This document shows positions 1,190 through 44,503 of a DNA stretch of 44,583 nucleotides, one piece after another. The position numbers and the translations under genes are program-made. How positions within the stretch are numbered: position 1 is the first letter of the stretch; the number at the start of each line of letters is the position of its first letter. Origin of the DNA: Gemmatimonadales bacterium. Lineage in GTDB: Bacteria > Gemmatimonadota > Gemmatimonadetes > Gemmatimonadales > GWC2-71-9. Under the pieces are notes generated by a model that saw only the letters and a list, made by a program, of their open reading frames with translations, had not been told where the DNA came from and searched no databases. The stretch is from NCBI GenBank assembly GCA_036378855.1, contig DASUVR010000139.1, positions 1-44,583 of the forward strand, written 5' to 3'.

Positions 1190-2710
1190 TTACGACCTGA
1201 TCTGTCGGGATGTCAAATGCAGTTCCTTGGTCCAGCCCGGGACCAGGGGTGCCAGCAGCAGCAGGTAGAGGGCAAAGGCCAGGGCGGTCGACCGAAAGTC
1301 CAGGCCGGGCAGCACCTGTCCCACCAGTCCTACCGCCGTGGTGCACCACACGAGAGGGAGGAGAATCGTGGCCACAAACCGGCCCGGCTCGGCAACGCCG
1401 GCTTCCCGCACATTGAGCCGCAGCACCAGTGCGGCGAACACCAGGTGACCGGCAAAGGTAGCGGCAGCAACCGAGCCCAGGCCGTAGCCACTCGCAAGCG
1501 CCACGATCGAGAGCGCAAACGTGAGAACCAGCGCCGATCCCGCATACAGAGGGAGCCGCCGCTGCCGGCCGGCGGCCACTGCCCCGATCGAGGCCAGGTT
1601 CACCAGGCCCATGGCCACCCCCGAGAGGAGAAAGACTCGACCCGGCGCGATTGCCTCGCGATAGGTGGGCACCGCGTGCAGCACCAGCGGCCCCAGAGCG
1701 AGGCTCAATCCGCCCAGAAGCGGGGGCAACAGACGGGCATATGGCAACAAGGCCCGCTCGAGGTGAGACTGCAGTGCGGCTGCCGCTCCGTTGGAGCTGG
1801 TTTCTCCGTACACCTGAGGAAACACCACCGTGCGAACCACCATCGCCAATGCGGCCGCGACTGTGGTTACCGATCCGGCAAATGCGTAGTACCCGAGCAT
1901 GGTCGAACCGCCCCAGATCGCCACGACCCAACGGTCTCCGGTCCCCAGCGCAATCCCCGCGGCCATACTGAGCACCACCGGCAAACCGATCTCCAGCATC
2001 CGCCGCACCCGCTTCGGATCGATGGTGGGCCGGAGCTCCAGCCAGCGTGACGCGGCAGCGATCCCCAGGAGGTTGGCCAGGGTGAGGCCCATGATTGCGC
2101 CCCCCAGGCCCCACACCGATGCCAGCGCGACGGCGCAGACCACATGCAGCACCGCAGTTCCGGACTCGAGCAGAGAGTACAGCCGGAGACTGCCGCGGAC
2201 CCGGGTGCACACGAGAGCGTAGCCGAAGAGAGCTTCCGCCAGCCCGGCGGCAGCAAAGCCTCGGAGCACCACCCGGTTGGCCTGATCATCTACCAGAAAC
2301 GAGATGGTAAGAGCGACTAGTGCGACACTACCCGACAACAGCAGCACGAAGCCGAGCGCCGCAGGCGCAAACGTACCCGGTACCGCAGGCGATCGTCCCT
2401 TTCTGCGCAGCAGCTCCAGCTCGAGGCCGCGGTAGACGCTGAGTCCGACCAGCGAGGAGTAGCGCATCACCAGTCGGAGCAGGGCCCACGTGCCGAACGC
2501 CGCCGGTCCGAGGAGCACGGCCAGCAGCACCCCTCGAATCGCCAGCATGACCTCCGCCGTTCCGCGGAACAGGGCGTAGCCCATGATCCTGCGGAGAACC
2601 CGGCGCTGAGTCGGCGGGACGGCGCGCTCGCCCGATCCGGCGAGGGGCAGGTTGGAAGTTGTCAGGAGGTCACCGGCCGCTGGGAGTGAACCGGGCGTAG
2701 GTGCGGCCAA
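1190..2710 (-). CDS. MOP-superfamily oligosaccharide/polysaccharide flippase (Wzx-like)
   Basis: 506-aa ORF that is hydrophobic throughout (about 12 or more helices) with Arg-rich loops. Last gene of the 9692->1190 operon. Start uncertain: TTG 2710 (41-nt overlap with the upstream gene) or ATG 2584. Confidence 0.7.
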   Translation of the reverse strand: MAAPTPGSLPAAGDLLTTSNLPLAGSGERAVPPTQRRVLRRIMGYALFRGTAEVMLAIRGVLLAVLLGPAAFGTWALLRLVMRYSSLVGLSVYRGLELELLRRKGRSPAVPGTFAPAALGFVLLLSGSVALVALTISFLVDDQANRVVLRGFAAAGLAEALFGYALVCTRVRGSLRLYSLLESGTAVLHVVCAVALASVWGLGGAIMGLTLANLLGIAAASRWLELRPTIDPKRVRRMLEIGLPVVLSMAAGIALGTGDRWVVAIWGGSTMLGYYAFAGSVTTVAAALAMVVRTVVFPQVYGETSSNGAAAALQSHLERALLPYARLLPPLLGGLSLALGPLVLHAVPTYREAIAPGRVFLLSGVAMGLVNLASIGAVAAGRQRRLPLYAGSALVLTFALSIVALASGYGLGSVAAATFAGHLVFAALVLRLNVREAGVAEPGRFVATILLPLVWCTTAVGLVGQVLPGLDFRSTALAFALYLLLLAPLVPGWTKELHLTSRQIRS

Positions 2711-3335
2711 GCAGCTGGGTGAAACGGATCTCTCCGATCAGCCGAGTTCCTGCGCCGGTCTTCTGCACGGTGCGCAGCGAGGGCGCGTTGGTTGGGGCCA
2801 CCATCCGCCAACCCTCTCGGAACCCGCTCTCCCGCGCCAGCCGGAGCCGGCCCGACGCGAGGGCCGACCCGATTCCGCTGCTTCGCTCCGAGGGGAGAAC
2901 GTAGAGGTTCAAGAGGTATGCGGCGCTGGATGGAAACTCGAGCGGGAGGGGCGACACCGCCACGTCGGGACCGAGATCGTCAGCCACCCAGGCGTAGCCG
3001 ACCGGGGTTTCTCCCCGCCAGGCCACCAGGCAGCGACGGCCTCGAGCGGCCAACGCGCGGAAGCGCTGCAATTCCCGCCGACCCACCAGTGAGGAAAGCC
3101 GAGCCCACTCCGCGGCTGTCGGCTGGGTGATTCGCACTCCAGCTGGAGGAGGGAGATCCACCATCTGCTCCACCTGGTGAGCAAAGACCAGCAGGTGGCC
3201 GCGGCGAAAGATCCGGTGCAGGGAGCGGCTGGCTGCCGCCTTCCAGGCGCCGGTCCATCCTTCATGCCGGTACGCCAGCAGGGCGTCGCCGGGGAGCGTT
3301 TTCAGGTCGAGCCAGTACGCGCCGAGGCGGCTCAT
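2670..3335 (-). CDS. GNAT-family acyltransferase, paralogue B
   Basis: Trimmed to ATG 3335 (MSRLGAYW...). C-terminal GNAT core 'LLNLYVLPSERSSGIGSAL' (R/QxxGxG/A acyl-CoA motif). N-terminal 'LPGDALLAYRHEGWTGAW' is shared with the neighbouring gene. ATGA overlap with the upstream stop at 3332-3335. Confidence 0.7.
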   Translation of the reverse strand: MSRLGAYWLDLKTLPGDALLAYRHEGWTGAWKAAASRSLHRIFRRGHLLVFAHQVEQMVDLPPPAGVRITQPTAAEWARLSSLVGRRELQRFRALAARGRRCLVAWRGETPVGYAWVADDLGPDVAVSPLPLEFPSSAAYLLNLYVLPSERSSGIGSALASGRLRLARESGFREGWRMVAPTNAPSLRTVQKTGAGTRLIGEIRFTQLLGRTYARFTPSGR

Positions 3336-4015
3336 CGGGCCAGACTGATCTCGATCGGGACCGGAGCACTCAGACTTCGGGACCAGCTCCGCATCCAGGA
3401 CAGGACCTTGAGCCGGCCCACGGTGCCCACCACCCGGCTCGGAGCCACACTCGCGACCGTTCGGATGGAGACGAAGTTGTTCCGATGAATGATGATCCAG
3501 CTGCGGTGGAAGCCTCGCTCCCGGCACAGCTCCAGACCGCGACTGAGCAGCGCGGCGCCCAGCCCTTCACTGCGCTCGCTCCGGGCCACTTCGATTTGCC
3601 AGACATAGACAGTGTCGGCCGGAAGCGAGAGGTCATAGCTCTCATGCCGGCTCTCGATGGCGGGCGAAAACCAGACATAACCCACCGCCTGCCGGCGCTT
3701 CCAGGCAATGAGGCAGATCCGCCCCGCTTCACTCGCCTGGGCAAACTGTTGCGGCCTCCGGCTCCGGCCCATGTTACCCAGGAGCGTCCAGTCGGGTCCG
3801 GTGAAAGGCCTGATATCCACCTCCGGTGGAAGCTCTGCATTCACCAGCCGGTGGAGGTCGGTCTCGATCAGGAAACGGCGCGCGTAGCCGCCCAGACGGC
3901 CCAGCGTTCGGCGGCGCATTTCCTGTTTGAGGCCGGCCCAGCCGCCGGTCCGCCAGGCGCGGAGAGCGTCGCCCGGAAAACTTTTCATGTCCTGAATGTA
4001 TTTCGCGAGGTTCAT
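3332..4015 (-). CDS. GNAT-family acyltransferase, paralogue A
   Basis: Trimmed to ATG 4015 (MNLAKYIQDM...). GNAT core 'VWQIEVARSERSEGLGAAL'. N-terminal 'FPGDALRAWRTGGWAGL' is paralogous to 2670-3335. ATGA overlaps at both ends. Confidence 0.7.
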   Translation of the reverse strand: MNLAKYIQDMKSFPGDALRAWRTGGWAGLKQEMRRRTLGRLGGYARRFLIETDLHRLVNAELPPEVDIRPFTGPDWTLLGNMGRSRRPQQFAQASEAGRICLIAWKRRQAVGYVWFSPAIESRHESYDLSLPADTVYVWQIEVARSERSEGLGAALLSRGLELCRERGFHRSWIIIHRNNFVSIRTVASVAPSRVVGTVGRLKVLSWMRSWSRSLSAPVPIEISLAR

Positions 4016-5013
4016 TCGCCGGCGTACACCCGTAGATCTGCTCCGCTCTCGGCCAGCACCGGTTGCTGAGCGAATGCTTGCCGCACAGCATCGGAGCCCA
4101 CCCACACGGCGGCCACCAGCGAGAGAGGATCGGGAATGGGACTGAGCCCCCAGCCTCGTTTGAACTGCTGCAGACCGTCGTGAACGAATGGGCCGGTGCG
4201 TCCCGCATCGAAAACCCGGTAGCCCTGGGCCCGGGCCCATTCGATGGTGAGGGCAAAAACCGCAAAGCCCGCCTTTTGGCGCATCAAGCTCGGATCTCCT
4301 TCGCGGACTCCTGAAATCGCTCCCCACAGCGTGTCGCCCCGGGGTACCGTGCATATGCCCGAGAGACGCTCGCCCTGCCGGGTGATGAAGTGCAGCACGC
4401 CCACCCGAGAGAATTCATCCATCAGTTGCTGCGAAGGGATCCAGGCCCCGGACCCATGCCGAGCCAGCGCTTGAGGCCGGACCATGGTCTCGAAGAACTC
4501 CTTCCAGTCGGCCGCCGAGCCTGCTTGCTGCAGCTCGAAGTTCTGCCGCTTCATCCTGCGCAGGTTCTCCCGCAGGCCGTGGCTGCAGTCTTTGGGCGGC
4601 AGTTGCGCCAGCTCGCCTTGCCATCTGACTGACTGGGGCACGATGACCCATCCGGCCCGGCGGAACCGGGGTGCCATCCAGCGGTGCACCTCGGCCAGGA
4701 CGATGTCTGCTGCAGCACCCTCGGTCACGGCTGCCGGGCTCCAAAGTGCGCGCCGCATCTCCCGGACTGGCGGGGGTAGCTCGCCCAGGACTCTGCTACC
4801 GATGGGACGCAGCAACTTCTCCCGACCGACCTCGATGAGGCTGATCGAATTCCCGGCCACATGGACCTGCCGCCGCCGCACGTCGCCGGTCAGCTGCAAC
4901 GGCAGGGCCATGCTGCGGTGGGCCAGGACCGGAGCCCGTCCCCACCGCGAAGTGTACGTGGGGACCAGCAACCGCTCCTCAACCAGACTGACCAGTGATC
5001 GAGTATGACTCAC
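4012..5013 (-). CDS. FemAB-like / Acetyltransf_6 (BioF2-like) GNAT-fold acyl- or aminoacyl-transferase
   Basis: C-terminal half '...GFAVFALTIEWARAQGYRVFDAGRTGPFVHDGLQQFKRGWG' matches the FemAB-related EPS-locus acyltransferase pattern (fDfGr...KxxWG). Start taken as GTG 5013, forming GTGA with the BKACE stop. Alternative start is ATG 4911. Confidence 0.65.
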   Translation of the reverse strand: MSHTRSLVSLVEERLLVPTYTSRWGRAPVLAHRSMALPLQLTGDVRRRQVHVAGNSISLIEVGREKLLRPIGSRVLGELPPPVREMRRALWSPAAVTEGAAADIVLAEVHRWMAPRFRRAGWVIVPQSVRWQGELAQLPPKDCSHGLRENLRRMKRQNFELQQAGSAADWKEFFETMVRPQALARHGSGAWIPSQQLMDEFSRVGVLHFITRQGERLSGICTVPRGDTLWGAISGVREGDPSLMRQKAGFAVFALTIEWARAQGYRVFDAGRTGPFVHDGLQQFKRGWGLSPIPDPLSLVAAVWVGSDAVRQAFAQQPVLAESGADLRVYAGE

Positions 5014-5939
5014 CCCGCGATTGCCTCCTCGGCTTCGTCGAGGACGATGGAACAAGGCAGCGCGGCCGGAGCCATCGGGGCGCTGCCGAGGCCCAGCATG
5101 GTGCGGGCGCGAGCAGGTGACGCCAGAGTCCGCCCGAAGGTCTCCGCCAGCAACGCCAGCCGGTCCATCAAACCGCCGTTTGTGGCCAGCTCGCTGCGAT
5201 CGTACACCAGGTGAATGTTGTCTTCCAGGCCAACCCGGCAATGGCCGCCCATGGCCAGAGCCAGGGTGTTCATCGGGAGCTGGAACAGCCCGATACCGGC
5301 CGCGGACCAGACTGAGTTGGGAGGAAGATCCTCCACCATGTTCGAGAGGTGGCGGGCGGTTGCCGGCACCGAATAACGGGACCCCAGCAGCAGATTGAAA
5401 TACCACGGGCCCCGCCCCAGCATGCCCTTGCTCATGAGAAACTTGGCCGCGTTGATCATGCCGAAATCGAAGCACTCCAGCTCCGGCTTGATGCCGTGAT
5501 TCACCATCTTCTCCGCCAGCGCGATCACCATGTCGGGTGAGTTCTGGCTGGTGCCCGTAGGGAAATCGAGCGACGTCATCGTGAGGCTAGCCAGATCGGG
5601 CCGGGCCAAGCCGCTGAGCTCGAGAACCTCGCTTCGGCGCTCGAATTCGGGAAAGTTCCTGCCGCTGCAGCTCACGCAGATGATGGCGTCCTCGGAGTGG
5701 CTCCGGATTCCTCGAATCATCTTCTCGTAGATCTCGCCCCGGTAGCTCGGAGTTCCATCCTCTTCTCGTGCGTGCAGGTGCACGATGGCAGCTCCGAGAT
5801 CGAGGGCACGACAGGAATCTTCGATGACTTCCTCGGGCGAGATCGGAACATGGGGCGTCATCGCCTTGGTCGGGATCATCCCGGTCGGACAGAAGTTGAC
5901 GATCAGCTCGGGGTAAGGCGTCAGCGGAAACGGCTTCAT
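5010..5939 (-). CDS. Beta-keto acid cleavage enzyme family protein (BKACE / DUF849; 3-keto-5-aminohexanoate cleavage enzyme-like)
   Basis: Trimmed to ATG 5939 (MKPFPLTPYPELIVNFCPTGMIPTK...). Family signatures 'NFCPTG', 'IVHLHARE', 'ELECFDFGM' and 'HCRVGLEDN' are all present. Confidence 0.85.
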   Translation of the reverse strand: MKPFPLTPYPELIVNFCPTGMIPTKAMTPHVPISPEEVIEDSCRALDLGAAIVHLHAREEDGTPSYRGEIYEKMIRGIRSHSEDAIICVSCSGRNFPEFERRSEVLELSGLARPDLASLTMTSLDFPTGTSQNSPDMVIALAEKMVNHGIKPELECFDFGMINAAKFLMSKGMLGRGPWYFNLLLGSRYSVPATARHLSNMVEDLPPNSVWSAAGIGLFQLPMNTLALAMGGHCRVGLEDNIHLVYDRSELATNGGLMDRLALLAETFGRTLASPARARTMLGLGSAPMAPAALPCSIVLDEAEEAIAG

Positions 5940-7183
5940 GGCATGTCTCTGCCGAAGGGGGTGGGAATGGGAGCGGGCATCGGTTGAATCCGCTGGCGGA
6001 CTTCTTCCATTTCGCGGCCACTGCGGACTTCCTGGGCCGCCTTCTTCAGCGTGCCGCTCCACTGAGCCAGAAACGGCACGGGATCGGCCGGGGACCATAC
6101 TGCATCGATCCAGGGCCCGGTGTAGCCACGAAGGAATTTCTGCCAATTCCAGTCAGGGCCGCGCTCCTGCACCGCGGTGTACAACAGGTCCGCGTGCAGG
6201 TGCAGCCAGGTGCCCCGCCAGCCGTTGGAGGAGGCACTCACCCGCTGGCGCCGGGCGTGCTCCTGCCAGATCAGGAGCGGATAGTTGACCCCGCAGCGGG
6301 TTGCCAGCGCGTGGCTGAGATAACAGCGCCCGTTGATCTCCATCAGCTTGAAACGGCCACCCCGCGGATCGCGCTTGTACTCCGCGCTGGCAACACCCCG
6401 CCAGCCGATGCGCCGCAGCAGCTCGATGGTGGGCTCGCGCAGCTCCGGGACGGTCGCCGGCTCGGCGGCCCGCGCCACCCCGAAGAACGAAGGCGCCTTC
6501 CTCAATTTTCGGAAGCCGAATTCGGCAGCCGGTTGACCCTGCCGGTCCAGATACACGGTGTAGTTGTAGAACTCGTCATCCGGGCCCGGCACCAGATCGA
6601 ACACGTCGGCGGCAAGGCCGGCTCGCTCGATCTGGTCGATCGCGGCAACCAGCTCCAAGGGGCTCCGGACAACGATCAGCTTCTTGCCCAAACGCTCCCA
6701 GAAGGCCGCGCTCACCTGCGGCTTTACCACCACCGGATAGCTGATATCGGTTCGCTGGGCGGTCACTCGAGAGGCGGGGCCGTAGCAACGCGGCACCGCA
6801 ACGCCTGCTTCACCGGCCAGCCGGTAGGTGTTCGGCTTCACCACCACCCGTCGGACAACCTCGGGTTCGGGGACCGAAAGCGGATACCACCGGGAGAGCA
6901 GCTCCCGGTGCTCCGCCAGGGCGGTAAGGGCGTAGTCATTGGTGGGGATCAGAGCCCAGCCGCGCCACTCGCTCGCGCGATCCTGCAGCAGGTCGATGAG
7001 CCCGTCGGGCCGGCGGTGCAGGTCGAAAACCCGATGCGCCTCGTGGGCGTAGCGGGAGTGATGCGCGATGTCGTGAGGCTTGGTCAGCACCACAGCCGTG
7101 CGCACGCCCGCACGCGCCAGACTTCGGAGTGCGCTCACGCCATTGGCGTAGCCGCCGATGACAACAGCACCCGGTGTGGTCAA
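5936..7183 (-). CDS. ATP-grasp carboxylate-amine ligase (COG3919-type)
   Basis: Sequence '...AVVIGGYANGVSALRSLARAGV...YPVVVKP...FKLMEINGRC' shows the pre-ATP-grasp Rossmann-like N-terminus plus the ATP-grasp core. Start taken as TTG 7183, forming TTGA with the upstream stop. Confidence 0.8.
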   Translation of the reverse strand: MTTPGAVVIGGYANGVSALRSLARAGVRTAVVLTKPHDIAHHSRYAHEAHRVFDLHRRPDGLIDLLQDRASEWRGWALIPTNDYALTALAEHRELLSRWYPLSVPEPEVVRRVVVKPNTYRLAGEAGVAVPRCYGPASRVTAQRTDISYPVVVKPQVSAAFWERLGKKLIVVRSPLELVAAIDQIERAGLAADVFDLVPGPDDEFYNYTVYLDRQGQPAAEFGFRKLRKAPSFFGVARAAEPATVPELREPTIELLRRIGWRGVASAEYKRDPRGGRFKLMEINGRCYLSHALATRCGVNYPLLIWQEHARRQRVSASSNGWRGTWLHLHADLLYTAVQERGPDWNWQKFLRGYTGPWIDAVWSPADPVPFLAQWSGTLKKAAQEVRSGREMEEVRQRIQPMPAPIPTPFGRDMP

Positions 7184-8463
7184 CTCAGCGGCTCGACCAC
7201 GCGAAACTTGGCCTGCGGACCGGTCGGGAGCCGGTCCACGAATTCGACGTCGGCTTCGAGAAAAGATGCCACGTTGTAGCGCAGCGCGGTGCGGACCTGG
7301 GATGTGACCAGACTGCGGTCGGCCGCCGATTCCAGTATGGCCCGGACCCTCACTCTGGCCTGATCCAGCTGGCTCACCTGGTAGCGCAGCAGCCCGGGGA
7401 TCTGCTCGATGGCGCAGGTCAGCGCGTAGGGAGAGATCCGAAGTCCACCTCGCATCACCAGCACATCCGATATCCGGCCGGTCACCAGCCCGAGCAGCGG
7501 CATGGGACATCCGCAGCTACAGCGGTCGGCTCGCAGACTGCCCCGATCCCCGGTACGGTAGCGAAGCAGGGGCATGGCCCGGTTCACCAGGACCGTGGCC
7601 ACCAGATCGCCCTCCACTCCGTCGGGGAGGATCCGGCCGGAGTCGTCCACCGCCTCGAGGTGCACCACATCGGAGTTGATGTGCCGGTTGCCGGCCGGGC
7701 ACTCCCATGCGATTTCCTTGGTTTCCGAGGTCCCGTACACGTCGTACACCGGCGCGTGGAATGCGGCCGAGATCTCGGTACGCGCTCCGCCCTGCAGCAG
7801 CTCGCCGCTGGTGAAGACGGCGCGAACTCTCACCTTCTCCCCTTGGCTATGCAGGAGTCGTCCCGCCTCTTGCAGAGCCGAGGGCAGCCCATACACCACG
7901 TCGGGCCTGAAGCTCTGGAGTGCGGCCACCAGCGATGCCGTCGGCTGAAATACGCTGATCCGCCGCCAGCGTTCCCAGCTGGGCATCATCGAGCCCTGAC
8001 CTGCCGGCGTAGTATCCAGCAGGGCAACCCGGTCGGTCACCCGAACTCCGCACGCCGCTCGGGCTCGCAGCTTTATCAGATATTTGAGCCGCGCCCATGC
8101 GCGGGCCTCGTAGTACACCCGGAACGGCTCACCGGTCGAGCCTGACGATGACGAGGAGTACCATTCCCGGTTCAACCGCCCGCCATCGAACTTTTTCAGG
8201 CCGGCGCGTCTGAGCTCGGCCTTGGACACCAGCGGAAGCGCCGCCAGGGCGCGATAAGGCTCGCGCTGCAGCACCGGGTCCGCCCATTCGATGCCGGCCG
8301 ACTGAAGCCGTCGCCCATAGAAGGTGTTGTTCCGCGCCACGTGAAAGAGCAGCCGGCTGAGCCGGTCCCGGGCGACGGAAGCGATCCAGTCCGGCTCCTG
8401 CCGCAGCATGCCGAACGTGCTGGGCCCGTCCACCGCCAGCCAGAACAGAGGCGGCCGGCTCAT
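7180..8463 (-). CDS. Adenylate-forming enzyme, phenylacetate-CoA ligase / CapK / F390-synthetase family (COG1541)
   Basis: Trimmed to ATG 8463 (MSRPPLFW...). AMP-binding loop 'SSSSGSTGEPF', 'DVYGTSE', 'YRTGDRG'. ATGA overlap with the GT4 stop. Confidence 0.85.
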   Translation of the reverse strand: MSRPPLFWLAVDGPSTFGMLRQEPDWIASVARDRLSRLLFHVARNNTFYGRRLQSAGIEWADPVLQREPYRALAALPLVSKAELRRAGLKKFDGGRLNREWYSSSSSGSTGEPFRVYYEARAWARLKYLIKLRARAACGVRVTDRVALLDTTPAGQGSMMPSWERWRRISVFQPTASLVAALQSFRPDVVYGLPSALQEAGRLLHSQGEKVRVRAVFTSGELLQGGARTEISAAFHAPVYDVYGTSETKEIAWECPAGNRHINSDVVHLEAVDDSGRILPDGVEGDLVATVLVNRAMPLLRYRTGDRGSLRADRCSCGCPMPLLGLVTGRISDVLVMRGGLRISPYALTCAIEQIPGLLRYQVSQLDQARVRVRAILESAADRSLVTSQVRTALRYNVASFLEADVEFVDRLPTGPQAKFRVVEPLS

Positions 8464-9692
8464 ACCGTGCTCACCGCGGTGGCCCGCGCTGTCCGCAATA
8501 CGGCCGGTGCGGTCATCCTGTGCCCCAGAGCCTCGTACACGGCGAGATACCGCGTGGTGGCCTGGGACCACTCCAGGTCTGCCTCCGCCTTGGCCCGGTT
8601 TCGGATGCTCATCAGTTGCCGGAGCTCCGGGTCCTGGCCCAGGTACTGAATGGCCCGCGCCAGCGCGAGCGGCTGGCCGGGATCGATCAACAGACCATTG
8701 ACGCCGTGTTCCACCAGCTCCGGGATGCCACCCACCGTACTGCCCACCACGGGGAGGCCAGAGGCCAGCGCCTCGGCGAACACATTGCCGAAAGCTTCCG
8801 CCGACGAGGGAAGAGTGAAGAGGTCGGCCGCACGGTAGCGCTCGGCGACAGCCTTGCGATCGAGCGACCCGGTAAAGCGGATCGCCGAGCCCACCCCCAG
8901 ACTCGCAGCCAGCCGCTTCAGCTTCTCACGGTCAGGACCATCACCCACGACCTCTAGCGCAAAGTGCCCTCGAGGCAGCAGTGCAAACGCGCGAATGAGC
9001 TCCCCCAAACCCTTGCGCTCGACCAACCGAGCCACGGCAAGGCATTGGATGAGACCATTGCCCCGAGCGCGACGTGCCCCTGCGCCTGCCGCAGGGTGGA
9101 AGAGCTCGAGATCGACCCCGTTCGGGATCACCGTGTATCCCAGAGTGGGAAGGGTACGCTGGGCCAGTTGGCCGAGACTGTCGCACACCGCAACAACCCT
9201 GCTCGCCCGACGCCAGATCCAGCGGGTGAGCGGTGCGAGCAACCGGTGCATCTGCTGCATCGAACGGTGGTATGGGTCATAGCCGGGAACGTCCGAGCCG
9301 CGCAGCGAAAGCACGACTGGGGTTCCTCGAGGCGCGGCGAATGGCAGCAGCGCGCCAGTGGGAAGCGAGAAGAAGACGTGAACCGCGTCGTACTCCAGGG
9401 TACGAACCAGCCGGCGCACCAGAGGAAACGCATGGAGCAGGTAACTCGCGGCGCCGAGCATGCCGGCCTCGTGCACTCCAACGCGCCGGCTCGGCACCCG
9501 ATAGATCCGGAGTCTGCCCTGCTCTTCCAGCTCGGCTGAGCCTGGCGGGGCGGATTTCCCGTCCGAGCAGCCCGAGGTGACCACATCTACGTTCACGCCG
9601 CGAGTCACCAGACCATTGGCCAGCGCGGCCGTCGCTACCCCAGCGCCGCCACCCAGCGGGGGGTACTCGTAGTTCAGGATCAGGACCCGCAT
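8460..9692 (-). CDS. Glycosyltransferase family 4 (GT-B, Glycos_transf_1)
   Basis: N-terminus 'MRVLILNYEYPPLGGGAGV' and C-terminal 'PSSAEAFGNVFAEALASGLPVVGSTVGGIPELV' (EX7E region). Start ATG 9692 (GGAG 9 nt upstream). Alternative start is ATG 9737. Confidence 0.9.
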   Translation of the reverse strand: MRVLILNYEYPPLGGGAGVATAALANGLVTRGVNVDVVTSGCSDGKSAPPGSAELEEQGRLRIYRVPSRRVGVHEAGMLGAASYLLHAFPLVRRLVRTLEYDAVHVFFSLPTGALLPFAAPRGTPVVLSLRGSDVPGYDPYHRSMQQMHRLLAPLTRWIWRRASRVVAVCDSLGQLAQRTLPTLGYTVIPNGVDLELFHPAAGAGARRARGNGLIQCLAVARLVERKGLGELIRAFALLPRGHFALEVVGDGPDREKLKRLAASLGVGSAIRFTGSLDRKAVAERYRAADLFTLPSSAEAFGNVFAEALASGLPVVGSTVGGIPELVEHGVNGLLIDPGQPLALARAIQYLGQDPELRQLMSIRNRAKAEADLEWSQATTRYLAVYEALGHRMTAPAVLRTARATAVSTV

Positions 9693-9982
9693 CTCGAGCT
9701 GCTCCAGGGGGAGAGAGACGAGCGGTACCTTGCCCATCCGCCATTAGCGGCGGGCTACATCCAGTGTGTCGGAAATGCGAAGAAGTGCGCGGCGTCCGGG
9801 GGGCAAGAGGCAAGCCAGCCTCAGATCCTATGTGCTGACTACTGCAGGATTTGTCTCGGCCAGCCCAAGCTGTTGCTGGACGAACTGTTTGGCGGGTCTT
9901 TCAGAGGTGATTGGGCCCGGCTGGCGTGTGGTCCGGCTCCCCGTCCTGTAGCGGCCCGGCTACAAGGAATTGGTAGCGGCGG

Positions 9983-12328
9983 TCACATTTGAAACAGGTA
10001 GCTGAGCTTGAGGAAAAATCCATCTTCCGCGCGTTGGAGCGTGGATTGCCCCATCTCGGTCGGATCTCTGAGTGTGCTGCCGTACCCGGCAAAGAGTACG
10101 GTTCCCGGGGTAGGCTGGTAGGAGAACAGAAAATCACCCCGGAAGGAGCGGTGGCCAAAGGGACGGGTGCGGGTGTACAGGTTGGTTATGGGATCGAACA
10201 CCAGAATCGGAGCGTTGGTTCGAGACTCGTCCCGCAAGGAGTCGCGCCGTTCGGTGGTGTACTCGCCCACCACCCGAAGAAAGATCGGCCGGGAGAGCTG
10301 ATATTCGATCTTGACCCGCGGACTTCTCCAGATACTCACCGTGCTGCCGTCAGTCCGCCGGCCTACGAACTGGAGGTGGTACTCTCCATTTACCCGGAGC
10401 TGGTCGGTGGGCCGCCAATCGAGGACCAGGTCGAGCCAGGTGATGTCGGCACTGGCCCATTCGTAGAAGTTTTCGTCGTGACCCCAGAGAAAGAAAATGT
10501 TTCCCGAGAAATGGGAGAACTCCGGCGAGTCGAGTGAAAGCACGTAATCGAGGTTGGGGATGGTCGGTTGGCCGGTGAACGGAATCGTGTCCAGCCCGCC
10601 GGCGCCAGCGGGCACCTCCAGAGCGTAATCGGCGTAGAGATCGGCCGGGTACCCGAACGACTCCGTCAGCACCGAGGCCCCGAACTGCCAGCCTCCGCCG
10701 AACCGGGTGTTGGTGTTGAAGTGCAGCTTCTTGTCCTGAATCCCTCCGCCGTTCACAAACTTCTGATATTCCCAGGTTCCGTCCAGCGCCACGTCTCCGG
10801 TAAAGCTTTCGAACCAGCTCCCCTGTTTGCCGTAGGCAGTGATGCTGTGATCCAGATTCGTATGCACGATGCCGGCCCGCTGAATGAATCCGCTGGCGGC
10901 GCGGAAATCATTGGCCACGCCGGCAAAGGTGTAGCGCGCTCCGAAGGTGCGGCCGTTTCGGGCCAGCCGGGAGGACCAGAGCGGCCCGGTTTCGGTCACG
11001 CCTCCAACCCGGGTGCGGCTGCCCGCCACCTGAAGCTGGGCACTGTAGATGTCGCCCATGACCAGTCGGGTATCGACCCCGGCCACCCGGTTGTAGTCGC
11101 GACCTACGACCTTGTCGGTGTACACCACGCCGAGCCGCGACTGCGAGCCGACATCGCGTTGAATTCGGAGCAGGTTGTACAGCGGATGATCCTCACCGGT
11201 GGGAGAAACGGCAGGATCGTCCAGCGCCGAGAGCACCGCCAGGTCGGTTCCGAACGCCTTTCCGGTGAGCTTGGCGGCCACAACCGGCTGCACGATCCGC
11301 CTGGTGTAGATCAGGTTGCTGGGCGTGGAGAATTGCTCGATTGCCTCTAGAAAAAACGGTCGCTTCTCCTGAAAGAAGAGCTCGTTGCGCGGGTCGAACA
11401 CAAACTGTTGGGCGTCGGATTCAATCTGGGAGAAATCCGGGTTGGCGGTTCCGTTGAGCGTCAGGTTGTTGGTAACCCCCCAACGGACGGTGCCACCCAG
11501 CTCCGGGCTGCCGCCGCTATAGCTCCACCCGCCGGTTCCGTCGGCTCCGGTGGTTCTTGAGGTCAGAGATGGGGTGAAGTCGAGCACCACCCCGCGCCGC
11601 AGGTCGGTGAGACCTACGAGCTTGCCCGACTGGCGAAGGAAGGAGGCGCTGGCCCGCTTGGCCGGCGTCCAGCTGTCCTCCCGGCCCGAATGCTGGACCA
11701 GCCGCACAACGTTGATGCCCCAGACCTGCTCCTGTTTGGGCTGGAAGCGGATGCTCTTGAAGGGAATCCGGATCTCGATCTCGTATCCGTACTCGGTAAC
11801 ATGGCCCTTGGATTCGAACACATAGTCAGGGCTGAGGTCTGCCTGCTCCCGCTTTACCACAGCGCTGTTGAAGCCGTTTCCGCTGACCGACCCGGTCTCT
11901 ACCAGCGCCCCGTCAGATTGAACTCCGAGGGGATTCACCGCAAAGACCAGCGCCTGGCGGCTGTCGTTGAAGGTGCTGAGCAGGATCTGGATGTAATCGT
12001 CCGCCGCGATCTTATCCCGATCCGCCAGCGTGGCGTGCACCGGCCCATGCGCCTCGAAGGCACGCACGCCGAAGTGGATCGCGGTGGGAGAGTACCAGAC
12101 CAGCACCTGGGTGGTATCCGCGGCCGGGATTCCATCCGTGGGAGAGAACTGGGAGAAACCGGTCAGCACCGCCGACTCGCCCCACACGGCCTCCGTCAGC
12201 TTCCCGTCCACCGACAGGTCGGCCTCCAGCCGGGGGATCCGTACCTCCACCTGCCCCGCCCGGCCGCTGTACACGGCAGGCGGATCGGTCATTGTCCAGG
12301 TGGTGAGGAGGGCTAGCGCCAGCAGCAT
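9983..12328 (-). CDS. CBM9-like / DUF5916 family envelope protein (probable outer-membrane beta-barrel with N-terminal carbohydrate-binding module)
   Basis: 781-aa ORF. N-terminal 'DGKLTEAVWGESAVLTGFSQFSPTDG' is CBM9-like. The long Gly/Tyr/Phe-rich alternating C-terminal region is beta-barrel-like. The signal peptide is short and atypical (MLLALALLTTWT). Confidence 0.6.
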   Translation of the reverse strand: MLLALALLTTWTMTDPPAVYSGRAGQVEVRIPRLEADLSVDGKLTEAVWGESAVLTGFSQFSPTDGIPAADTTQVLVWYSPTAIHFGVRAFEAHGPVHATLADRDKIAADDYIQILLSTFNDSRQALVFAVNPLGVQSDGALVETGSVSGNGFNSAVVKREQADLSPDYVFESKGHVTEYGYEIEIRIPFKSIRFQPKQEQVWGINVVRLVQHSGREDSWTPAKRASASFLRQSGKLVGLTDLRRGVVLDFTPSLTSRTTGADGTGGWSYSGGSPELGGTVRWGVTNNLTLNGTANPDFSQIESDAQQFVFDPRNELFFQEKRPFFLEAIEQFSTPSNLIYTRRIVQPVVAAKLTGKAFGTDLAVLSALDDPAVSPTGEDHPLYNLLRIQRDVGSQSRLGVVYTDKVVGRDYNRVAGVDTRLVMGDIYSAQLQVAGSRTRVGGVTETGPLWSSRLARNGRTFGARYTFAGVANDFRAASGFIQRAGIVHTNLDHSITAYGKQGSWFESFTGDVALDGTWEYQKFVNGGGIQDKKLHFNTNTRFGGGWQFGASVLTESFGYPADLYADYALEVPAGAGGLDTIPFTGQPTIPNLDYVLSLDSPEFSHFSGNIFFLWGHDENFYEWASADITWLDLVLDWRPTDQLRVNGEYHLQFVGRRTDGSTVSIWRSPRVKIEYQLSRPIFLRVVGEYTTERRDSLRDESRTNAPILVFDPITNLYTRTRPFGHRSFRGDFLFSYQPTPGTVLFAGYGSTLRDPTEMGQSTLQRAEDGFFLKLSYLFQM

Positions 12329-18340: not shown

Positions 18341-20542
18341 CTATCTTGAAACCTCCACCTGGACCAGGGACGACAGAAATGCCCGCACCGCCGACACCCC
18401 TTCCAGCCGGAAACGAGCATGGGTTGCTCCCGGACCGACCTTGATCGTGATCGCGTCGGGAGGAAGCACGGTGAACAAGTCCTCGTCGGTTCGATCGTCA
18501 CCGATGGCGAGGATGACAACGGACGCGAGCCGCTCGGGGGAAAGTGGCGGAACGATCCTGCCCTTGTGGATGCCATAGGGGCGGATCTCGATCACCTTGT
18601 GCCCCGCCAGAATCTCCACCGGCTGATTGCTGAGCATCTGCGCCAGGTGCAATCGCAGCTCGTTGGCTCGCCGAGCGCCGGACTCCTGGTCTGCCATGCG
18701 GTAGTGCCAGGCTAGCGCCACCGATTTCTCCTCGGTGAGCGAGCCCGGCGTCCGGGCGGTGATCTCCCGGAGAATGGCCAGAGCCGGCTCTCGCCAGGCC
18801 GGCCCCAGTTCACCGGCGGGAGTCCACTCGCGTTGGCCCACCGCTCGAGACCAGAACCCGTGCTCTGCGTGCAACGCGATCGGCAGCAGGCCCAGCCACT
18901 GCTCCAGTGTCTCCCGCGCACGGCCGCTCACCACGTGCAATTCGGTATTGGGCCTGCTGGCGATCGCGGCCAACAGCTCCAGCAATGACCGATCGGGACG
19001 AGCCAGCTCCGGCGTGGCCGTGTAGGGCACCAGGGTCCCGTCATAATCCAGCAGTACCAGCAGGCCCTGCCCGTCCTGCATTCGCGCGGTCAGCTCCTGC
19101 CTGGCAGCCGCACCCGACGCCGGCGCCCGGCGCGCGACGGTGGCCTGACGGGTGATGGTGTCCAGCTGCTCGAGAAAGCTCGCCGCCCAGCGGTGCACGT
19201 CATACGCCTCGACCCGCTCGCGGAGCGGAGCGAGCCGTGCCCGGCGCTCTTCGGTGGCCATGGTCAGGGCGCGGTAGTAGCTCTCGGCGGTGGCCTCCAC
19301 ATCATACGGATTCACCTGGATGGCCTCAGGCAGCTCCCAGGAGGCGCCGGCAAACTCGCTCAGCACTAGGACCCCGTCGCCATCGATTCGTGAGGCTACG
19401 AACTCTTTCGCCACGAGGTTCATGCCGTCTCGCAGCGGCGTCACCAGCATCACGTCCGCCGCCCGGTAGAGCGCGACCAGCTCGGGCTCGGACAGTCCGC
19501 GATAGATGTAGTGAACCGGCACCCACCGGGGGGTACCAAAGGCGCCATTGATCCGGCCGACCAGGCCATCGACCAGAGCTCGAAACTCCTGGTAGGCTTC
19601 CACGTTGGTCCGGGAAGGGACCGCCACCTGCACCAGTCTCACCCGTTCCCGCAGATCGGGATGGGTATCCAGCATCCGCTCGTAGGCGAGCAGTCGGCGG
19701 GGGATGCCCTTGGTGTAGTCCAGCCGGTCCACTCCCACCAGCAACCTCAAGTTTCCGTCGTCTTTCAGGGTGAGGGCTTCCGCCTCAACCCCGGGAGCCT
19801 CGGCCATTTTCCTGAATGATTCCGCGTCGATGCCCATGGGAAACACGCCCAACCGAACATCCCGGTCGGCCAGCTGCACCCGATCGATGTCTACGGTGAG
19901 TCCCAGGATCTGGGTCAGGGAAGCGGCAAAGTGGCGCAGATACGCCGGTGTGTGAAAGCCAACCAGATCGGCGCCCAGCAGTCCCCGCAGAACCCGATCG
20001 CGCTCCGGCAGGGTCCGGAACAGCTCCTCACTGGGAAACGGGATATGAAGGAAGAACCCGATGCGGGCGTCAGGCAGCCGCCGCCGCAGCAGTTGAGGCA
20101 GCAGCAGCAGTTGATAATCGTGCACCCAGATCAGATCACCGGGCTGATAATGCCGGGCCACCGCGTCGGCGAACTGTTCGTTGACCTCGAGGTAGGCGTC
20201 CCAGTCACGGACCTGGAGGGGGATCTGATCGAGCAGATAGTGAAAGAGCGGCCAGAGGACGCCGTTGGAGTATCCCTCGTAGTACCGGGCCACCTGCGCT
20301 CCGGTGAGTGGAACCGCCACCAGCCGCATCTCCGATAGCTTGTGCTCCAGCTCCTTTTTCTGCTGCTCCGACAGATCCTCTTCCGTGCTGCCGGACCACC
20401 CGATCCAGACCCCGCCGGACTGCTCATGCGGCCGGAGCAATCCGGTAGCCAGACCTCCCGTACTCTTTTGGACCTCCACCCCTGATTCGGTGGGGCTGAC
20501 CGTCACCGGGAGCCGGTTGGCGACGATGATGACCCGGGGCAC
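18341..20542 (-). CDS. otsA: Bifunctional trehalose-6-phosphate synthase / trehalose-6-phosphate phosphatase (OtsA-OtsB fusion)
   Basis: 733-aa ORF. The GT20 N-terminal part has 'IIVANRLPV...GGLATGL'. The C-terminal HAD phosphatase has '[14 protein letters not shown]' (DxDGT). GTG start at 20542 shares 1 nt with the upstream TAG stop. Confidence 0.9.
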
Positions 20543-25395: not shown

Positions 25396-25433
25396 TTCGT
25401 ATGTTCTGCCTTCGGCCGAGGCGGGGAAACCGA

Positions 25434-25466
25434 TTGCCAGATAGTGGCGTTCAATTAGTATTGAAC
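25434..25466 (+). promoter_or_regulatory. Putative sigma70-type promoter with overlapping palindromic MarR operator
   Basis: TTGCCA (25434-25439), a 16-nt spacer, then TAGTAT (25456-25461). A perfect inverted repeat GTTCAAT-TAGT-ATTGAAC (25449-25466) overlaps the -10, 37 nt upstream of the marR-like ATG. Confidence 0.45.
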
Positions 25467-25502
25467 GAACTAACCTTGGCGCCCGATGGGGCAAGGCACA
25501 TC

Positions 25503-25985
25503 ATGGATATACGTACGGCGCACTTCGTTGAGCGAATGGGATTGGCCCTCGAGGCCGATGGCCTCCCTCGGATCGCGGGCCGAATTTTTGGCCTCCTCCT
25601 GGTCAGCGAAAAACCCCGATCTCTGGATGAGCTGGCGGCCGAGCTGCGGGTGAGCAAGGCGAGTGTAAGCACCAACGCTCGCCTCCTGGAGCACCGTGGG
25701 GTACTGGAGCAGGTCAGCCGCCCGGCCGACCGCCGCGACTACTATCGGATTCCCCGGGATCTCTTCACCCATACCATGGCCCAGCGGCTGGCCCGCTGGC
25801 AGCGCTTTCAGGACGCCATCGGCGATGCCCGTGCCACCGTACCTATCAGAAGCCGTGAGGTACTGGATCGGCTGACCGAGTTCGAGCAGGCATACACCTA
25901 CATGTCTCAGGTGATCAAGGAAGCTCTGGCGGACTGGCAGTCTGGCCGCGGCTCACGGATCGATGGGGTAGGAGTGAGCGGGTGA
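25503..25985 (+). CDS. MarR/GbsR-type winged-helix transcriptional regulator
   Basis: Trimmed to ATG 25503 (MDIRTAHFVERMG...). 'GRIFGLLLVSEKPRSLDELAAELRVSKASVSTNARLLEHRGVLEQV' is a typical wHTH recognition region. Confidence 0.75.
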   Translation: MDIRTAHFVERMGLALEADGLPRIAGRIFGLLLVSEKPRSLDELAAELRVSKASVSTNARLLEHRGVLEQVSRPADRRDYYRIPRDLFTHTMAQRLARWQRFQDAIGDARATVPIRSREVLDRLTEFEQAYTYMSQVIKEALADWQSGRGSRIDGVGVSG

Positions 25986-27100
25986 TGACCATCCCTTTTT
26001 CCCCCCTGCGTCGGCTGACAGTGGGAGTGCTGTTGCTGGCAGCCTGTTCCGATCGTGATCCACCCCCGCCGCCTCCAGTGCCGGTTATCGTGGCCACTGC
26101 CGAACGTCGCTCGGTTCCTTTCGAGCTGGCAGCCACCGGGCAGGTCGAGCCGCTTCAGACCGTGGCGGTTCAATCCCAGGTCGAAGGCACGTTGCGGAGA
26201 ATCGCGTTTACCGAGGGCGCCGAGGTTCAGCGCGGGCAGGTGCTCTTCGAGCTGGACCCTCGGCCCTACCGGGCCGCACTGGATCAGGCGATTGCTGCGC
26301 TGGTCCGGGACAGCGCCCAGGCGGCAAACGCAGCCGAGGAAGCGGGCCGCTACCAGGCTTTAGCCGAAAAGCAGTACGTGACCACTCAGCAATACGAGCA
26401 GATCCGGACCACTGCGGCCAGCGCCCGGGCGAGCCTGGCCGGCAGCCGGGCCGCGGTGGAGGCGGCGCGGCTCAACCTGCAGTACGCCACAATCCGGGCG
26501 CCGATTACCGGCCGGACGGGCAGCCTGTTGCTGCGGGAGGGCAATCTGGTGCGGGCCAACGCGTCGCAGCCGTTGGTCACGATCAATCAGATCCGGCCCA
26601 TCCTGGTCCGCTTCTCGGTTCCCGCGCCGAACCTCCCTTTGCTGCAGGAGCATCGCGGGAAAGACGTGGTGATCCGGGCCGAGCCGGGCGGTGGTGGTGA
26701 GCCGAGCGAAGGCTCATTGACCTTCATCGACAATGCGGTAGACACTGCCACGGGCACTATTCTGCTCAAGGGCCGCTTCCCCAACGATGACGGAGCACTG
26801 TGGCCGGGAGCCTTCGTGAATGTCCGGTTGCAGTTGTACGTCGAGCCGAACGCTCTGGTGGTGCCGGCGTCGGCCGTGGTTGCCGGTCAGCAAGGCAGCT
26901 TTGTGTTCGTGATCCAGAAGGACAATTCTGCCGCCACCCGGGCGGTGACGGTCAGCCGGACAGCCGGCGACTACTCCATTGTAAATGGAGACGTGCAGCC
27001 GGGTGACCGGGTGGTCACCGACGGACAGCTCCGTCTTCGGCAGGGCTCCAAGGTTCAGATCAAGGCCGCGGCCGACACGTCGCGGTTGGGGGCACTATGA
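25982..27100 (+). CDS. RND efflux periplasmic adaptor (membrane fusion protein), lipoprotein
   Basis: Lipobox 'LLLAAC'. Hairpin/lipoyl/beta-barrel pattern 'RPYRAALDQA...NLQYATIRAPITGRTG...'. GTGA overlap with the marR stop (alternative start ATG 25985). Confidence 0.9.
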   Translation: MMTIPFSPLRRLTVGVLLLAACSDRDPPPPPPVPVIVATAERRSVPFELAATGQVEPLQTVAVQSQVEGTLRRIAFTEGAEVQRGQVLFELDPRPYRAALDQAIAALVRDSAQAANAAEEAGRYQALAEKQYVTTQQYEQIRTTAASARASLAGSRAAVEAARLNLQYATIRAPITGRTGSLLLREGNLVRANASQPLVTINQIRPILVRFSVPAPNLPLLQEHRGKDVVIRAEPGGGGEPSEGSLTFIDNAVDTATGTILLKGRFPNDDGALWPGAFVNVRLQLYVEPNALVVPASAVVAGQQGSFVFVIQKDNSAATRAVTVSRTAGDYSIVNGDVQPGDRVVTDGQLRLRQGSKVQIKAAADTSRLGAL

Positions 27101-33432: not shown

Positions 33433-33433
33433 T

Positions 33434-44430: not shown

Positions 44431-44503
<73 letters not shown>

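Follow-up and report, generated by a model that had tools for sequence, protein, structure and literature searches.

Introduction

Amide-linked substituents are already known to be placed on surface glycans by ATP-grasp ligases and acyltransferases, and these enzyme types are themselves well described. The known roles of β-keto acid cleavage enzymes (BKACEs; DUF849) are almost all catabolic (lysine fermentation and the breakdown of carnitine, aromatic compounds and deoxyribose), with one recent biosynthetic exception, flavophos, whose biosynthesis includes the DUF849 enzyme BsfD (PDB 9ZSC; PMC12871164). Here we describe an operon that unites these enzyme types. It lies in a 44,583-nucleotide stretch of DNA (G+C content ~65%) from a Gemmatimonadales bacterium (GenBank assembly GCA_036378855.1, contig DASUVR010000139.1), which we call the window, and its eight genes encode a GT4 glycosyltransferase, a PaaK/CapK-like ligase, an ATP-grasp ligase, a BKACE, a Fem-like transferase, two GNAT acyltransferases and a flippase-like protein. 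We favor reading the operon as a regulated accessory surface-decoration cassette, which would place a sugar on a membrane-associated acceptor, add amide-linked units, N-acylate them with a BKACE-derived group and flip the product outward. We give this reading a probability of about one half.

The closest described counterparts are the amino-sugar N-acylation modules of O-antigen and capsule loci, which combine DegT with a PglD/VioB/NeuD-type or GNAT transferase. Like the operon, these modules have an acyl-CoA-dependent N-acyltransferase near glycosyltransferases and a Wzx-type flippase, and the Bacteroidota members of the BKACE clade described below sit directly in them. Unlike them, the operon has no aminotransferase or dehydratase and encodes GNATs instead of hexapeptide (LbH) transferases. 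In the searchable literature, we found no described N-acylation module in which a BKACE supplies the acyl-CoA.

Other systems resemble the operon in part. With the enzymes of peptidoglycan side chains, the operon family shares a Fem-fold transferase, a D-Asp-ligase-type ATP-grasp enzyme (Aslfm, COG3919), a MOP flippase and, in variants, a MurF-like ligase. However, the scores are 18.8 bits against a cutoff of 500 for FemX and 189 against 288.6 for MurF (aligned only from about position 74 of the model), and the set accompanies a GT4 and a BKACE, differs from genome to genome and lies outside the dcw cluster. Mycothiol and bacillithiol synthesis likewise combines an ATP-dependent ligase and capping by a GNAT with a GT4 from the same broad subgroup, and the structural search with the Fem-like protein retrieved MshD among its matches. 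We rejected this pathway because there is no deacetylase and no MshC/BshC-type ligase, and the GT4 scores 120 bits against 274 for BshA and 110 against 462 for MshA. Exopolysaccharide (EPS) loci of the PEP-CTERM/XrtA type supply the top NCBIfam match of the GT4 (stp2), and the Fem-like protein weakly matches the PEP-CTERM FemAB model (TIGR03019). This system was rejected too, since the scores are 136 bits against 409 for stp2 and 19 against 260 for FemAB, and the window holds no exosortase or PEP-CTERM genes.

As proposed in an initial annotation of the window, which was made from its sequence, the enzyme set matches no characterized pathway: NCBIfam and the open-access literature yielded no curated family for, or paper on, the locus. 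In these same two sources, which do not prove absence, the pairing of a BKACE clade with sugar N-acyltransferases in two phyla is undescribed, and so are a Gemmatimonadales cassette family with changing ligases and its σ54-type control region.

A co-inherited operon

The initial annotation described eight open reading frames (ORFs) on the minus strand, running from 9692 to 1190 without intergenic DNA. The coordinates are as claimed, and each of the seven junctions overlaps, six of them by 4 bp (ATGA, GTGA or TTGA). The genes for GNAT2 and the flippase overlap by 41 nt when the flippase starts at TTG 2710. This start is the best supported because it is the sole start codon at or before the onset of the conserved region, which begins about 26 codons upstream of ATG 2584, at "TTSNLP" in the two closest orthologues. 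The start of the GT4 at ATG 9692 was upheld by orthologue gene calls and protein conservation (MRVL...). The longest GT4 ORF begins at ATG 9737 on the minus strand, a codon within a leader hairpin.

Relatives with 67-95% protein identity carry the identical eight genes in identical order, and comparison with two orthologous operons revealed purifying selection on every gene (ratio of nonsynonymous to synonymous substitution rates, dN/dS, 0.08–0.25). Because order and selection are maintained in this way, the arrangement is not due to chance. All eight family assignments were also upheld, by profile hidden Markov models, catalytic motifs or predicted fold. Together, these results bear out the view that the locus is a coherent, co-inherited biosynthetic operon, whose enzyme types add acyl and aminoacyl groups to sugar-containing molecules. 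A hydropathy scan, whose reach does not extend to monotopic association, predicted membrane-spanning segments in none of the seven enzymes and 12 in the last gene product.

No operon product reaches an NCBIfam equivalog cutoff. A secondary match to PF20706 ("GT4-conflict") prompted us to consider a defense or conflict system, which we rejected, as the eight operon proteins and the neighboring DUF5916 protein gave no match to PADLOC defense models.

A BKACE clade shared with surface-glycan loci

The BKACE scores 273.8 bits against PF05853 (cutoff 24.8) and falls below every NCBIfam equivalog cutoff, the top match being the Kce model (238 bits against 382). We scanned species-representative genomes for related BKACEs and obtained 76 loci, ~45 from Gemmatimonadales and the remainder mainly from Bacteroidota. 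Residues were scored in 72 sequences, 44 from Gemmatimonadales and 28 from the outgroup. The Zn ligands (H46, H48 and E230 in Kce) and Glu143 are kept in all 44 and all 28, which places the proteins in DUF849, and the equivalents of R226 and D231 are likewise conserved. Given this conservation, the enzyme is probably active.

In Kce, Glu14 binds the 5-amino group of the substrate (PMC10470551). This position is Ile or Val in 44/44 Gemmatimonadales BKACEs (Ile in 42) and Ile in 28/28 outgroup sequences, although ascertainment bias from the peptide patterns used for retrieval affects positions 14 and 145. With the amine-binding Glu replaced, the β-aminoacyl product that had been proposed is unlikely, and a neutral side chain on the substrate is more likely. 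Thus, the enzyme shares with Kce its Pfam family, a full-length alignment and the conserved catalytic residues, but differs in identity (33%), in score, in Glu14 and Tyr145 (Ile and Phe, respectively) and in the signature described below, and its context is biosynthetic or envelope-related rather than catabolic. We do not assign it to Kce. Two annotation names carried by homologues of this BKACE are probably wrong, because the scores fall short of both equivalog cutoffs and the Glu that would bind the amine is missing.

A putative catalytic Tyr (Tyr145 in Kce) is reported to occur in all canonical BKACEs (PMC12871164). The position is Phe in all 72 sequences scored, a departure that is not decisive: 3NO5 has Phe there too, and yet reaches 486 bits against a cutoff of 350 for the canonical 3-oxoadipate BKACE equivalog. 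We therefore rejected the idea that Phe signals BsfD-like, non-canonical chemistry. BsfD resembles the window enzyme in being a DUF849 enzyme of a biosynthetic cluster with Phe at this position, but it is 33% identical, belongs to another clade and has a ~20-residue loop insertion with Arg91 (PMC12871164), which does not appear in the window enzyme when it is aligned to Kce and 3NO5.

Four residues at Kce positions (S84, S106, T108 and N170) are invariant in the Gemmatimonadales and outgroup BKACEs and differ in Kce, 3NO5 and BsfD. In a neighbor-joining tree with five solved reference sequences, the Gemmatimonadales and outgroup enzymes formed one clade in 100/100 bootstraps, with 47% identity within the clade and 28–37% to the references.

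The outgroup BKACEs, 42–60% identical to that of the window, lie in classical O-antigen or capsule loci. These contain GT2 and GT56 (WecF-like) glycosyltransferases, a DegT aminotransferase, a WbpB-like oxidoreductase, NDP-sugar epimerase/dehydratase and dehydrogenase genes, ATP-grasp enzymes of the L-amino-acid-ligase and "sugar-transfer-associated" types, and, for export, a strong PST flippase (8e-77) or an ABC exporter. In a strict count over 31 outgroup loci, a ~227-aa LbH acyltransferase is encoded directly downstream of the BKACE on the same strand, often overlapping it, in 21, and anywhere in the locus in 26. The LbH protein belongs with the NeuD/PglB/VioB sugar N-acyltransferases (113–146 bits; cutoff 160.8). 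Cultured type strains that carry the pair include Algoriphagus vanfongensis DSM 17529, A. zhangzhouensis DSM 25035, Gillisia hiemivivida IC154 and Aequorivita capsosiphonis DSM 23843. The other partner genes of the Gemmatimonadales operon were found in no outgroup locus.

The initial annotation held that BKACEs are not known from envelope loci. This is so in the searchable literature, but not in genomes, and the link between BKACE and envelope glycans that it guessed at is both real and wider than supposed, since it extends to Bacteroidota loci and a neighboring sugar N-acyltransferase. Because the enzyme is repeatedly paired with acyl-CoA-dependent N-acyltransferases, the canonical direction (β-keto acid plus acetyl-CoA to acyl-CoA plus acetoacetate, the acyl-CoA passing to the transferase) fits best.

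These data also bear on whether the genes are merely adjacent, with a catabolic BKACE and no single pathway, as the top NCBIfam match to Kce would allow. The evidence contradicts this, and we consider it very improbable: the Kce score is well under its cutoff, the Glu that binds the substrate amine (PMC10470551) is Ile, no other lysine-fermentation gene is nearby, the BKACE gene overlaps both neighbors by 4 bp and is retained in 16 of 17 cassettes, and the clade recurs within glycan loci beside an acyltransferase in other phyla.

Variable cassettes at a fixed site

The operon occupies a fixed chromosomal site, between genes for a DUF5916 protein and a rhodanese, in ~45 Gemmatimonadales species genomes (BKACE 72–95% identity). 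Its closest relatives are in uncultured soil Gemmatimonadales known from metagenome-assembled genomes (BKACE identity up to 95%). Genes were called with a GC3-based caller, which recovers all window genes, for Gemmatimonadales and with a plain longest-ORF caller for the low-G+C DNA of Bacteroidota. Seventeen cassettes were completely captured from DUF5916 to rhodanese, and these show 13 gene arrangements. The GT4, the PaaK-like ligase, the BKACE, the Fem-like transferase and a GNAT are each present in 16 of the 17, FemAB_like (PF04339) in 13, a second (pre-)ATP-grasp in 11, the flippase in 10, an Fmt/ArnA-like formyltransferase in 9 and the COG3919 ATP-grasp of the window in 3. Thus, the eight-gene set is a real conserved unit, as first annotated, but it is one variant among at least 13 architectures, and its exact form is common only to the window and its closest relatives (L001 and L006).

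The cassettes range from a minimal GT4–BKACE–formyltransferase set (L021) to one with five PaaK-like ligases in a row, after the GT4 and around the BKACE (L037). From its gene content, the latter suggests stepwise assembly of a longer amide-linked chain. The accessory genes all encode amide-forming or N-acylating enzymes: the MurF-like ligase, the second ATP-grasp, FemAB_like and the formyltransferase. Among the cassette genes, conservation is highest for the BKACE, as in L037, where it is 74% identical, against 55% for the GT4 and 41% for the Fem-like transferase.

A sister operon at another chromosomal site has the order GT4 – ATP-grasp – CapK-like – GNAT – MurF-like – (AMP-binding), and its ATP-grasps are ~50% identical to that of the window. 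As these sister operons lack a BKACE, the underlying system appears to be one GT4 with varying amide-forming enzymes and a GNAT, to which the BKACE would be a lineage-specific addition that was then tightly retained. A BKACE paralogue with 52% identity also exists elsewhere in Gemmatimonadales genomes, adjoining a 188-aa GNAT. Beside this paralogue lies a ~390-aa protein without a Pfam match, whose SAGVDS motif is reminiscent of PP-loop ATP-pyrophosphatases.

The glycosyltransferase and the ligases

The first protein scores 134.7 bits against Glycos_transf_1 (cutoff 26.4) and 78.8 against Glyco_transf_4 (cutoff 28.5), and its EX7E motif (EAFGNVFAE, residues 299-307) agrees with GT4 (GT-B) membership. 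A PDB sequence search identified sucrose-phosphate synthase, BshA, MshA and PimB' as the nearest solved structures, and the leading NCBIfam matches are stp2 (2e-39), EpsE (1.3e-37), BshA (1.3e-34) and MshA (1.5e-31).

The PaaK-like ligase matches Pfam AMP-binding at 28.7 bits, slightly below the cutoff of 29.9, NCBIfam DVU_1553/PaaK models at 5e-36 to 4e-21, each under its own cutoff, and phenylacetate-CoA ligases in the PDB at 2e-20 to 8e-15. All ANL motifs are intact (A3 SSGSTGEP, A5 YGTSE, A7 YRTGD and the A10 Lys in AKFR), which identifies it as an ANL enzyme. It is not a PaaK equivalog, scoring 75 bits against 646 for TIGR02155 and 96 against 700 for the haloarchaeal PaaK model.

The ATP-grasp protein matches Pfam weakly (CPSase_L_D2, 8.5e-6 across 55 residues), and sequence searches of NCBIfam and the PDB found no match among curated models and solved structures. 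Its AlphaFold model (pLDDT 91) gave Foldseek matches of probability 1.0 (TM-score ~0.6) to biotin carboxylase (1.5e-15), the L-amino-acid ligase 3VOT, PurK and PylC. Together with the Mg-binding E-x-N motif (MEINGR), this fold places it among the ATP-grasp enzymes. Homologues carry the automated JGI name "D-aspartate ligase", and on the strength of that name alone the enzyme may have D-aspartate ligase (Aslfm) activity.

The relatives of the GT4 raise the possibility of a soluble product, namely a glycosylated amino-acid or peptide metabolite such as a compatible solute, a redox buffer resembling mycothiol or bacillithiol, or a secreted antibiotic-like compound. The acceptor of the GT4 would then be a small molecule, to which amino acids would be added by the ligases and the Fem-like enzyme; the GNATs would cap amines, and the PST-like protein, where present, would export the product. 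BshA, MshA and sucrose-phosphate synthase as closest solved relatives fit this scheme, as do the places of BshA and MshA among the top NCBIfam matches, but those two scores are far under their cutoffs, and neither an LmbE-type deacetylase nor a cysteine ligase is present. Lipid-linked saccharides are the known substrates of PST transporters, so that the family of the flippase counts against a soluble product; yet the flippase is optional (10/17), and the sister operons are wholly cytoplasmic, with no transporter. A single glycosyltransferase without polymer machinery is also compatible with a metabolite, and so is the match of the Fem-like fold to Sba18/Sbb17, whose substrate is a soluble compound of the aminoglycoside type. 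Varying ligase content is typical of secondary-metabolite clusters as well. Set against these points, the related Bacteroidota BKACEs lie in classical surface-polysaccharide loci, and the operon matches no defense or other named system. We regard a soluble metabolite as a serious alternative, though less likely than a surface decoration.

The transferases and the flippase

The Fem-like protein belongs to a narrow family with 271 matches, every named one from Gemmatimonadales, and a sequence search of the PDB gave no match. Its AlphaFold model (pLDDT 93) has the tandem-GNAT fold of Fem/MprF-type transferases, with Foldseek matches to FemX (7e-11), Sba18/Sbb17 (~1e-8), aaPGS/MprF synthase domains (~1e-8) and L/F-transferase. 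The predicted fold points to aminoacyl-tRNA as donor, yet a partial, partly conserved acyl-CoA motif, (Q/R)GA(G/S)xA at 246-251, means that the donor may instead be acyl-CoA. The two small GNATs both carry the canonical motif A, (Q/R)xxGx(G/A), and score 39.7 and 37.4 bits against Acetyltransf_1 (cutoff 20.7), as expected of GNAT enzymes; a PDB sequence search with the GNAT gave generic matches only. They are 33% identical over 200 residues (E 2e-31), including a ~90-aa N-terminal region before the Pfam match. Since the canonical acyl-CoA motif is confined to these two and the 333-aa protein has an aminoacyl-tRNA-dependent fold type, it is doubtful whether all three GNAT-fold enzymes transfer the product of the BKACE, as was proposed earlier.

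The last protein matches PST families and not MATE (Polysacc_synt_3, 29.7 bits; cutoff 23) and has ~12 hydrophobic segments, as expected of a MOP/PST transporter, for which a lipid-linked substrate is predicted. PDB sequence searches with the flippase, the ATP-grasp protein and the DUF5916 protein gave no match. In a Pfam scan of the called genes in the 44.6 kb of the window, no priming phosphoglycosyl-transferase, Wzy, Wzz or outer-membrane exporter (Wza) came to light, which agrees with the initial annotation. The same four components were also not found in the variable cassettes, and we do not classify the operon as a Wzx/Wzy-dependent assembly locus.

One glycosyltransferase and a flippase without a polymerase would suit a lipid product, as the initial annotation also suggested. 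In such a scheme, a split analogue of MprF (synthase plus flippase) would remodel membrane glycolipids: the GT4 would make a glycosyl-diacylglycerol or glycosyl-phospholipid, the Fem/MprF-fold enzyme would aminoacylate the head group from aminoacyl-tRNA, the GNATs would N-acylate it and the PST protein would flip it. The Foldseek matches to aaPGS/MprF are consistent with this, and the GT4 has secondary NCBIfam matches to GlcNAc-phosphatidylglycerol synthase (6.5e-18) and monoglucosyl-diacylglycerol synthase (1.1e-15) and PDB matches to PimA and PimB'. These are weaker, however, than the EPS-type matches (stp2 and EpsE), and the hydropathy scan predicted no membrane-spanning segment in the GT4. 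The scheme would also leave unexplained the MurF-like ligase and the presence of as many as five adenylating ligases in other variants, and no PST family member is known to flip diacylglycerol lipids. We consider glycolipid remodeling unlikely.

Conserved elements upstream of the operon

The intergenic DNA upstream of the GT4 contains TGGCTTGCCTCTTGCCC, an element whose TGGC-N7-TTGC spacing is exactly that of the sigma-54 −24/−12 consensus. Its extended form, TGGC[T/G]T[A/G][C/T]CTCTTGCCC, is invariant within otherwise unalignable DNA. In all 32 Gemmatimonadales loci that span the region it occurs exactly once, on the operon strand, starting 77–129 nt before the GT4 ATG; across 30 non-redundant loci the element is invariant and its flanks are not conserved. 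It was in none of the outgroup loci. Because the generic −24/−12 pattern is not significant by itself in the window (4 matches against 2.1 expected), the evidence for the element is this phylogenetic footprint.

Further upstream is a dyad, TGTAGCCGGGCCGCTACA, found in 29 of 30 loci at 126–165 nt from the −24 element; ~1 locus is expected by chance (maximum 6 in 200 shuffles). Its position is that expected of an enhancer-binding-protein site, for which it is a candidate. In the 1.33 Mb of local DNA covered, we found no RpoN box or GAFTGA motif. Sigma-54 regulons are reported to be centered on the cell exterior (PMC3162934).

In 6 of the 17 complete cassettes, genes for a TPR protein and a 609-aa Ser/Thr kinase lie between DUF5916 and the operon promoter. 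The −24/−12 element remains with the GT4 in these loci, and the dyad persists where other genes part DUF5916 from the GT4. The inserted genes may add a further regulatory layer.

The 5' leader contains a GC-rich hairpin that folds in every long-class leader and is absent from short-class leaders. Its stems are lineage-specific yet paired (GCCC/GGGC, GCCTC/GAGGC and CUGCC/GGCAG). A CUCC…GGAG mini-hairpin over the Shine-Dalgarno sequence has invariant pairing and hence no covariation signal; statistical support for both structures is weak. We rejected a conserved leader RNA structure because the RNAalifold consensus is weak (−6.9 kcal/mol) and z-scores are ordinary. No riboswitch or other known RNA was found upstream, as Rfam detects only a tRNA in the window (44431–44503), and no sigma-70 promoter or intrinsic terminator was above chance.

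Flanking genes and the remainder of the window

The operon is flanked on one side by a two-domain rhodanese gene and on the other by the DUF5916 gene. All complete cassettes and most partial loci have DUF5916 upstream in the same orientation, and in about half of these it is the immediate neighbor; it may be an envelope partner of the operon or a mere syntenic flank. The highly conserved rhodanese gene is a flank: a gap of 209 nt divides it from the operon, and the sister operons do without it, so that we rejected a sulfur or thiol role for it as a functional partner. Beyond these flanks lie peptidases and other unrelated genes (Table 1). The fused trehalose synthase/phosphatase gene is followed by one for a POT-family peptide transporter, a pair that is syntenic in L004.

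Table 1. Location of the features discussed. Positions are those of the window unless a locus in another genome is named.
Feature	Location	Strand	Evidence or remark
GT4 retaining glycosyltransferase, 410 aa, first operon gene	8460..9692	-	Glycos_transf_1 3e-39, Glyco_transf_4 6.5e-22
PaaK/CapK-like adenylate-forming ligase, 427 aa	7180..8463	-	NCBIfam DVU_1553 family 4.8e-36
COG3919/"D-aspartate ligase"-type ATP-grasp carboxylate-amine ligase, 415 aa	5936..7183	-	fold and motif
BKACE/DUF849 Zn-dependent TIM-barrel enzyme, 309 aa, glycan-locus clade	5010..5939	-	PF05853 2e-81
Tandem-GNAT Fem/MprF-fold transferase, 333 aa	4012..5013	-	Acetyltransf_6 7.5e-7, 29.8 bits (cutoff 22)
GNAT acyl-CoA N-acyltransferase, paralogue 1, 227 aa	3332..4015	-	Acetyltransf_1 6.6e-10, motif A RSEGLG at residue 148
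GNAT acyl-CoA N-acyltransferase, paralogue 2, 221 aa	2670..3335	-	Acetyltransf_1 3.5e-9, motif A RSSGIG at residue 151
MOP/PST-family flippase-like membrane protein, 506 aa	1190..2710	-	Polysacc_synt_3 5e-7, Polysacc_synt 2.5e-5
Shine-Dalgarno GGAG	9702..9705	-	9 nt before ATG 9692; GGAGC invariant in 11 aligned loci
CUCC…GGAG mini-hairpin	9702-9711	-
GC-rich 5'-leader hairpin	9732..9755	-	folds in every long-class leader
σ54-type −24/−12 promoter-like element	9801..9817	-	TGGC-N7-TTGC spacing and phylogenetic footprint
Dyad (TGT-N12-ACA), candidate activator (enhancer-binding protein) site	9947..9964	-	putative function
DUF5916 protein, 781 aa, hydrophobic N-terminus	9983-12328	-	no PDB or NCBIfam match
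Fused trehalose-6-phosphate synthase/phosphatase	18341-20542	-	Glyco_transf_20 1e-156 and Trehalose_PPase
Efflux operon: MarR regulator, HlyD-type membrane-fusion protein, AcrB-type RND pump, MFS_3 transporter	25401-31532	+
Bat/aerotolerance-type operon: MoxR AAA ATPase, DUF58, unknown, BatA-like VWA, BatB-like VWA, TPR	31628-37107	+
Row of five PaaK-like ligases	L037:8814-16500
Sister operon	L081:8733-15998; L082:7730-15430		adjoins histidine kinase and DUF5117/DUF4953 protein
BKACE paralogue with 188-aa GNAT	L043:9414-12027; L044:8254-10897
TPR/kinase insertion	L017:4848-7261		likewise in L019, L023, L025, L027, L039

Discussion

The fixed site with variable content, the amide-forming accessory genes, the link between the BKACE and surface glycans and the promoter footprints are the grounds on which we favor a surface-decoration cassette. 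Diversifying surface-glycan loci show this pattern of a constant site with changing content. From the genes, folds, motifs, conservation and genomic associations reported above, we infer the order of reactions, the substrates and a lipid-linked acceptor as follows. At the cytoplasmic face, the GT4 would transfer a sugar to an acceptor associated with the membrane, which would be a glycolipid or a lipid-linked glycan intermediate produced elsewhere. The PaaK-like ligase, the D-Asp-ligase-type ATP-grasp and the Fem/MprF-fold enzyme would add amino acids or carboxylic acids, one or a few in number, in amide linkage. The BKACE would convert a neutral β-keto acid and acetyl-CoA to a non-standard acyl-CoA and acetoacetate, the two GNATs would use this acyl-CoA to N-acylate free amines of the product, and the flippase would move the finished unit to the outer face. 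As the number and kind of ligases vary by lineage, the substituent would vary too, as in variable surface-antigen loci.

Several observations weigh against a surface decoration. The flippase is missing from 7 of the 17 complete cassettes, and the sister operons have neither a transporter nor a BKACE; the claim of the initial annotation that a GT4 with a MOP flippase marks a lipid-linked glycan was thus too strong. The nearest solved relatives of the GT4 use small soluble acceptors (malate, inositol phosphate and fructose-6-phosphate). There is a single glycosyltransferase and, in the window, no priming transferase, polymerase or outer-membrane exporter, and the operon has no enzyme for amino-sugar formation or deacetylation that would furnish the amine for the GNATs. 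The Phe in place of Kce Tyr145 is shared with non-canonical BsfD, though also with canonical-scoring 3NO5. Finally, the outgroup loci were retrieved through peptide patterns derived from the window BKACE, which biases the sample to similar enzymes.

The presence of one BKACE clade in both settings allows a broader proposal, which we put forward tentatively and hold to be plausible rather than probable: the clade would be a dedicated supplier of non-standard acyl-CoA to sugar N-acyltransferases, and the Gemmatimonadales cassette, through its varying ligases, would make an as yet undescribed family of envelope molecules, acylated glyco-amino acids or glyco-peptides, under the control of sigma-54. 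If true, a clade tied to sugar N-acyltransferases would be a new biosynthetic role for the BKACE family and could explain the origin of some unusual N-acyl groups on O-antigens and capsules. Because the BKACE–acyltransferase pair occurs in cultured Bacteroidota type strains, this role is directly testable. For the cassette, the conserved promoter-like element and dyad are a first regulatory lead, and its variable content at a fixed site makes it a candidate determinant of envelope diversity in the Gemmatimonadales, which are abundant but barely cultured soil bacteria.

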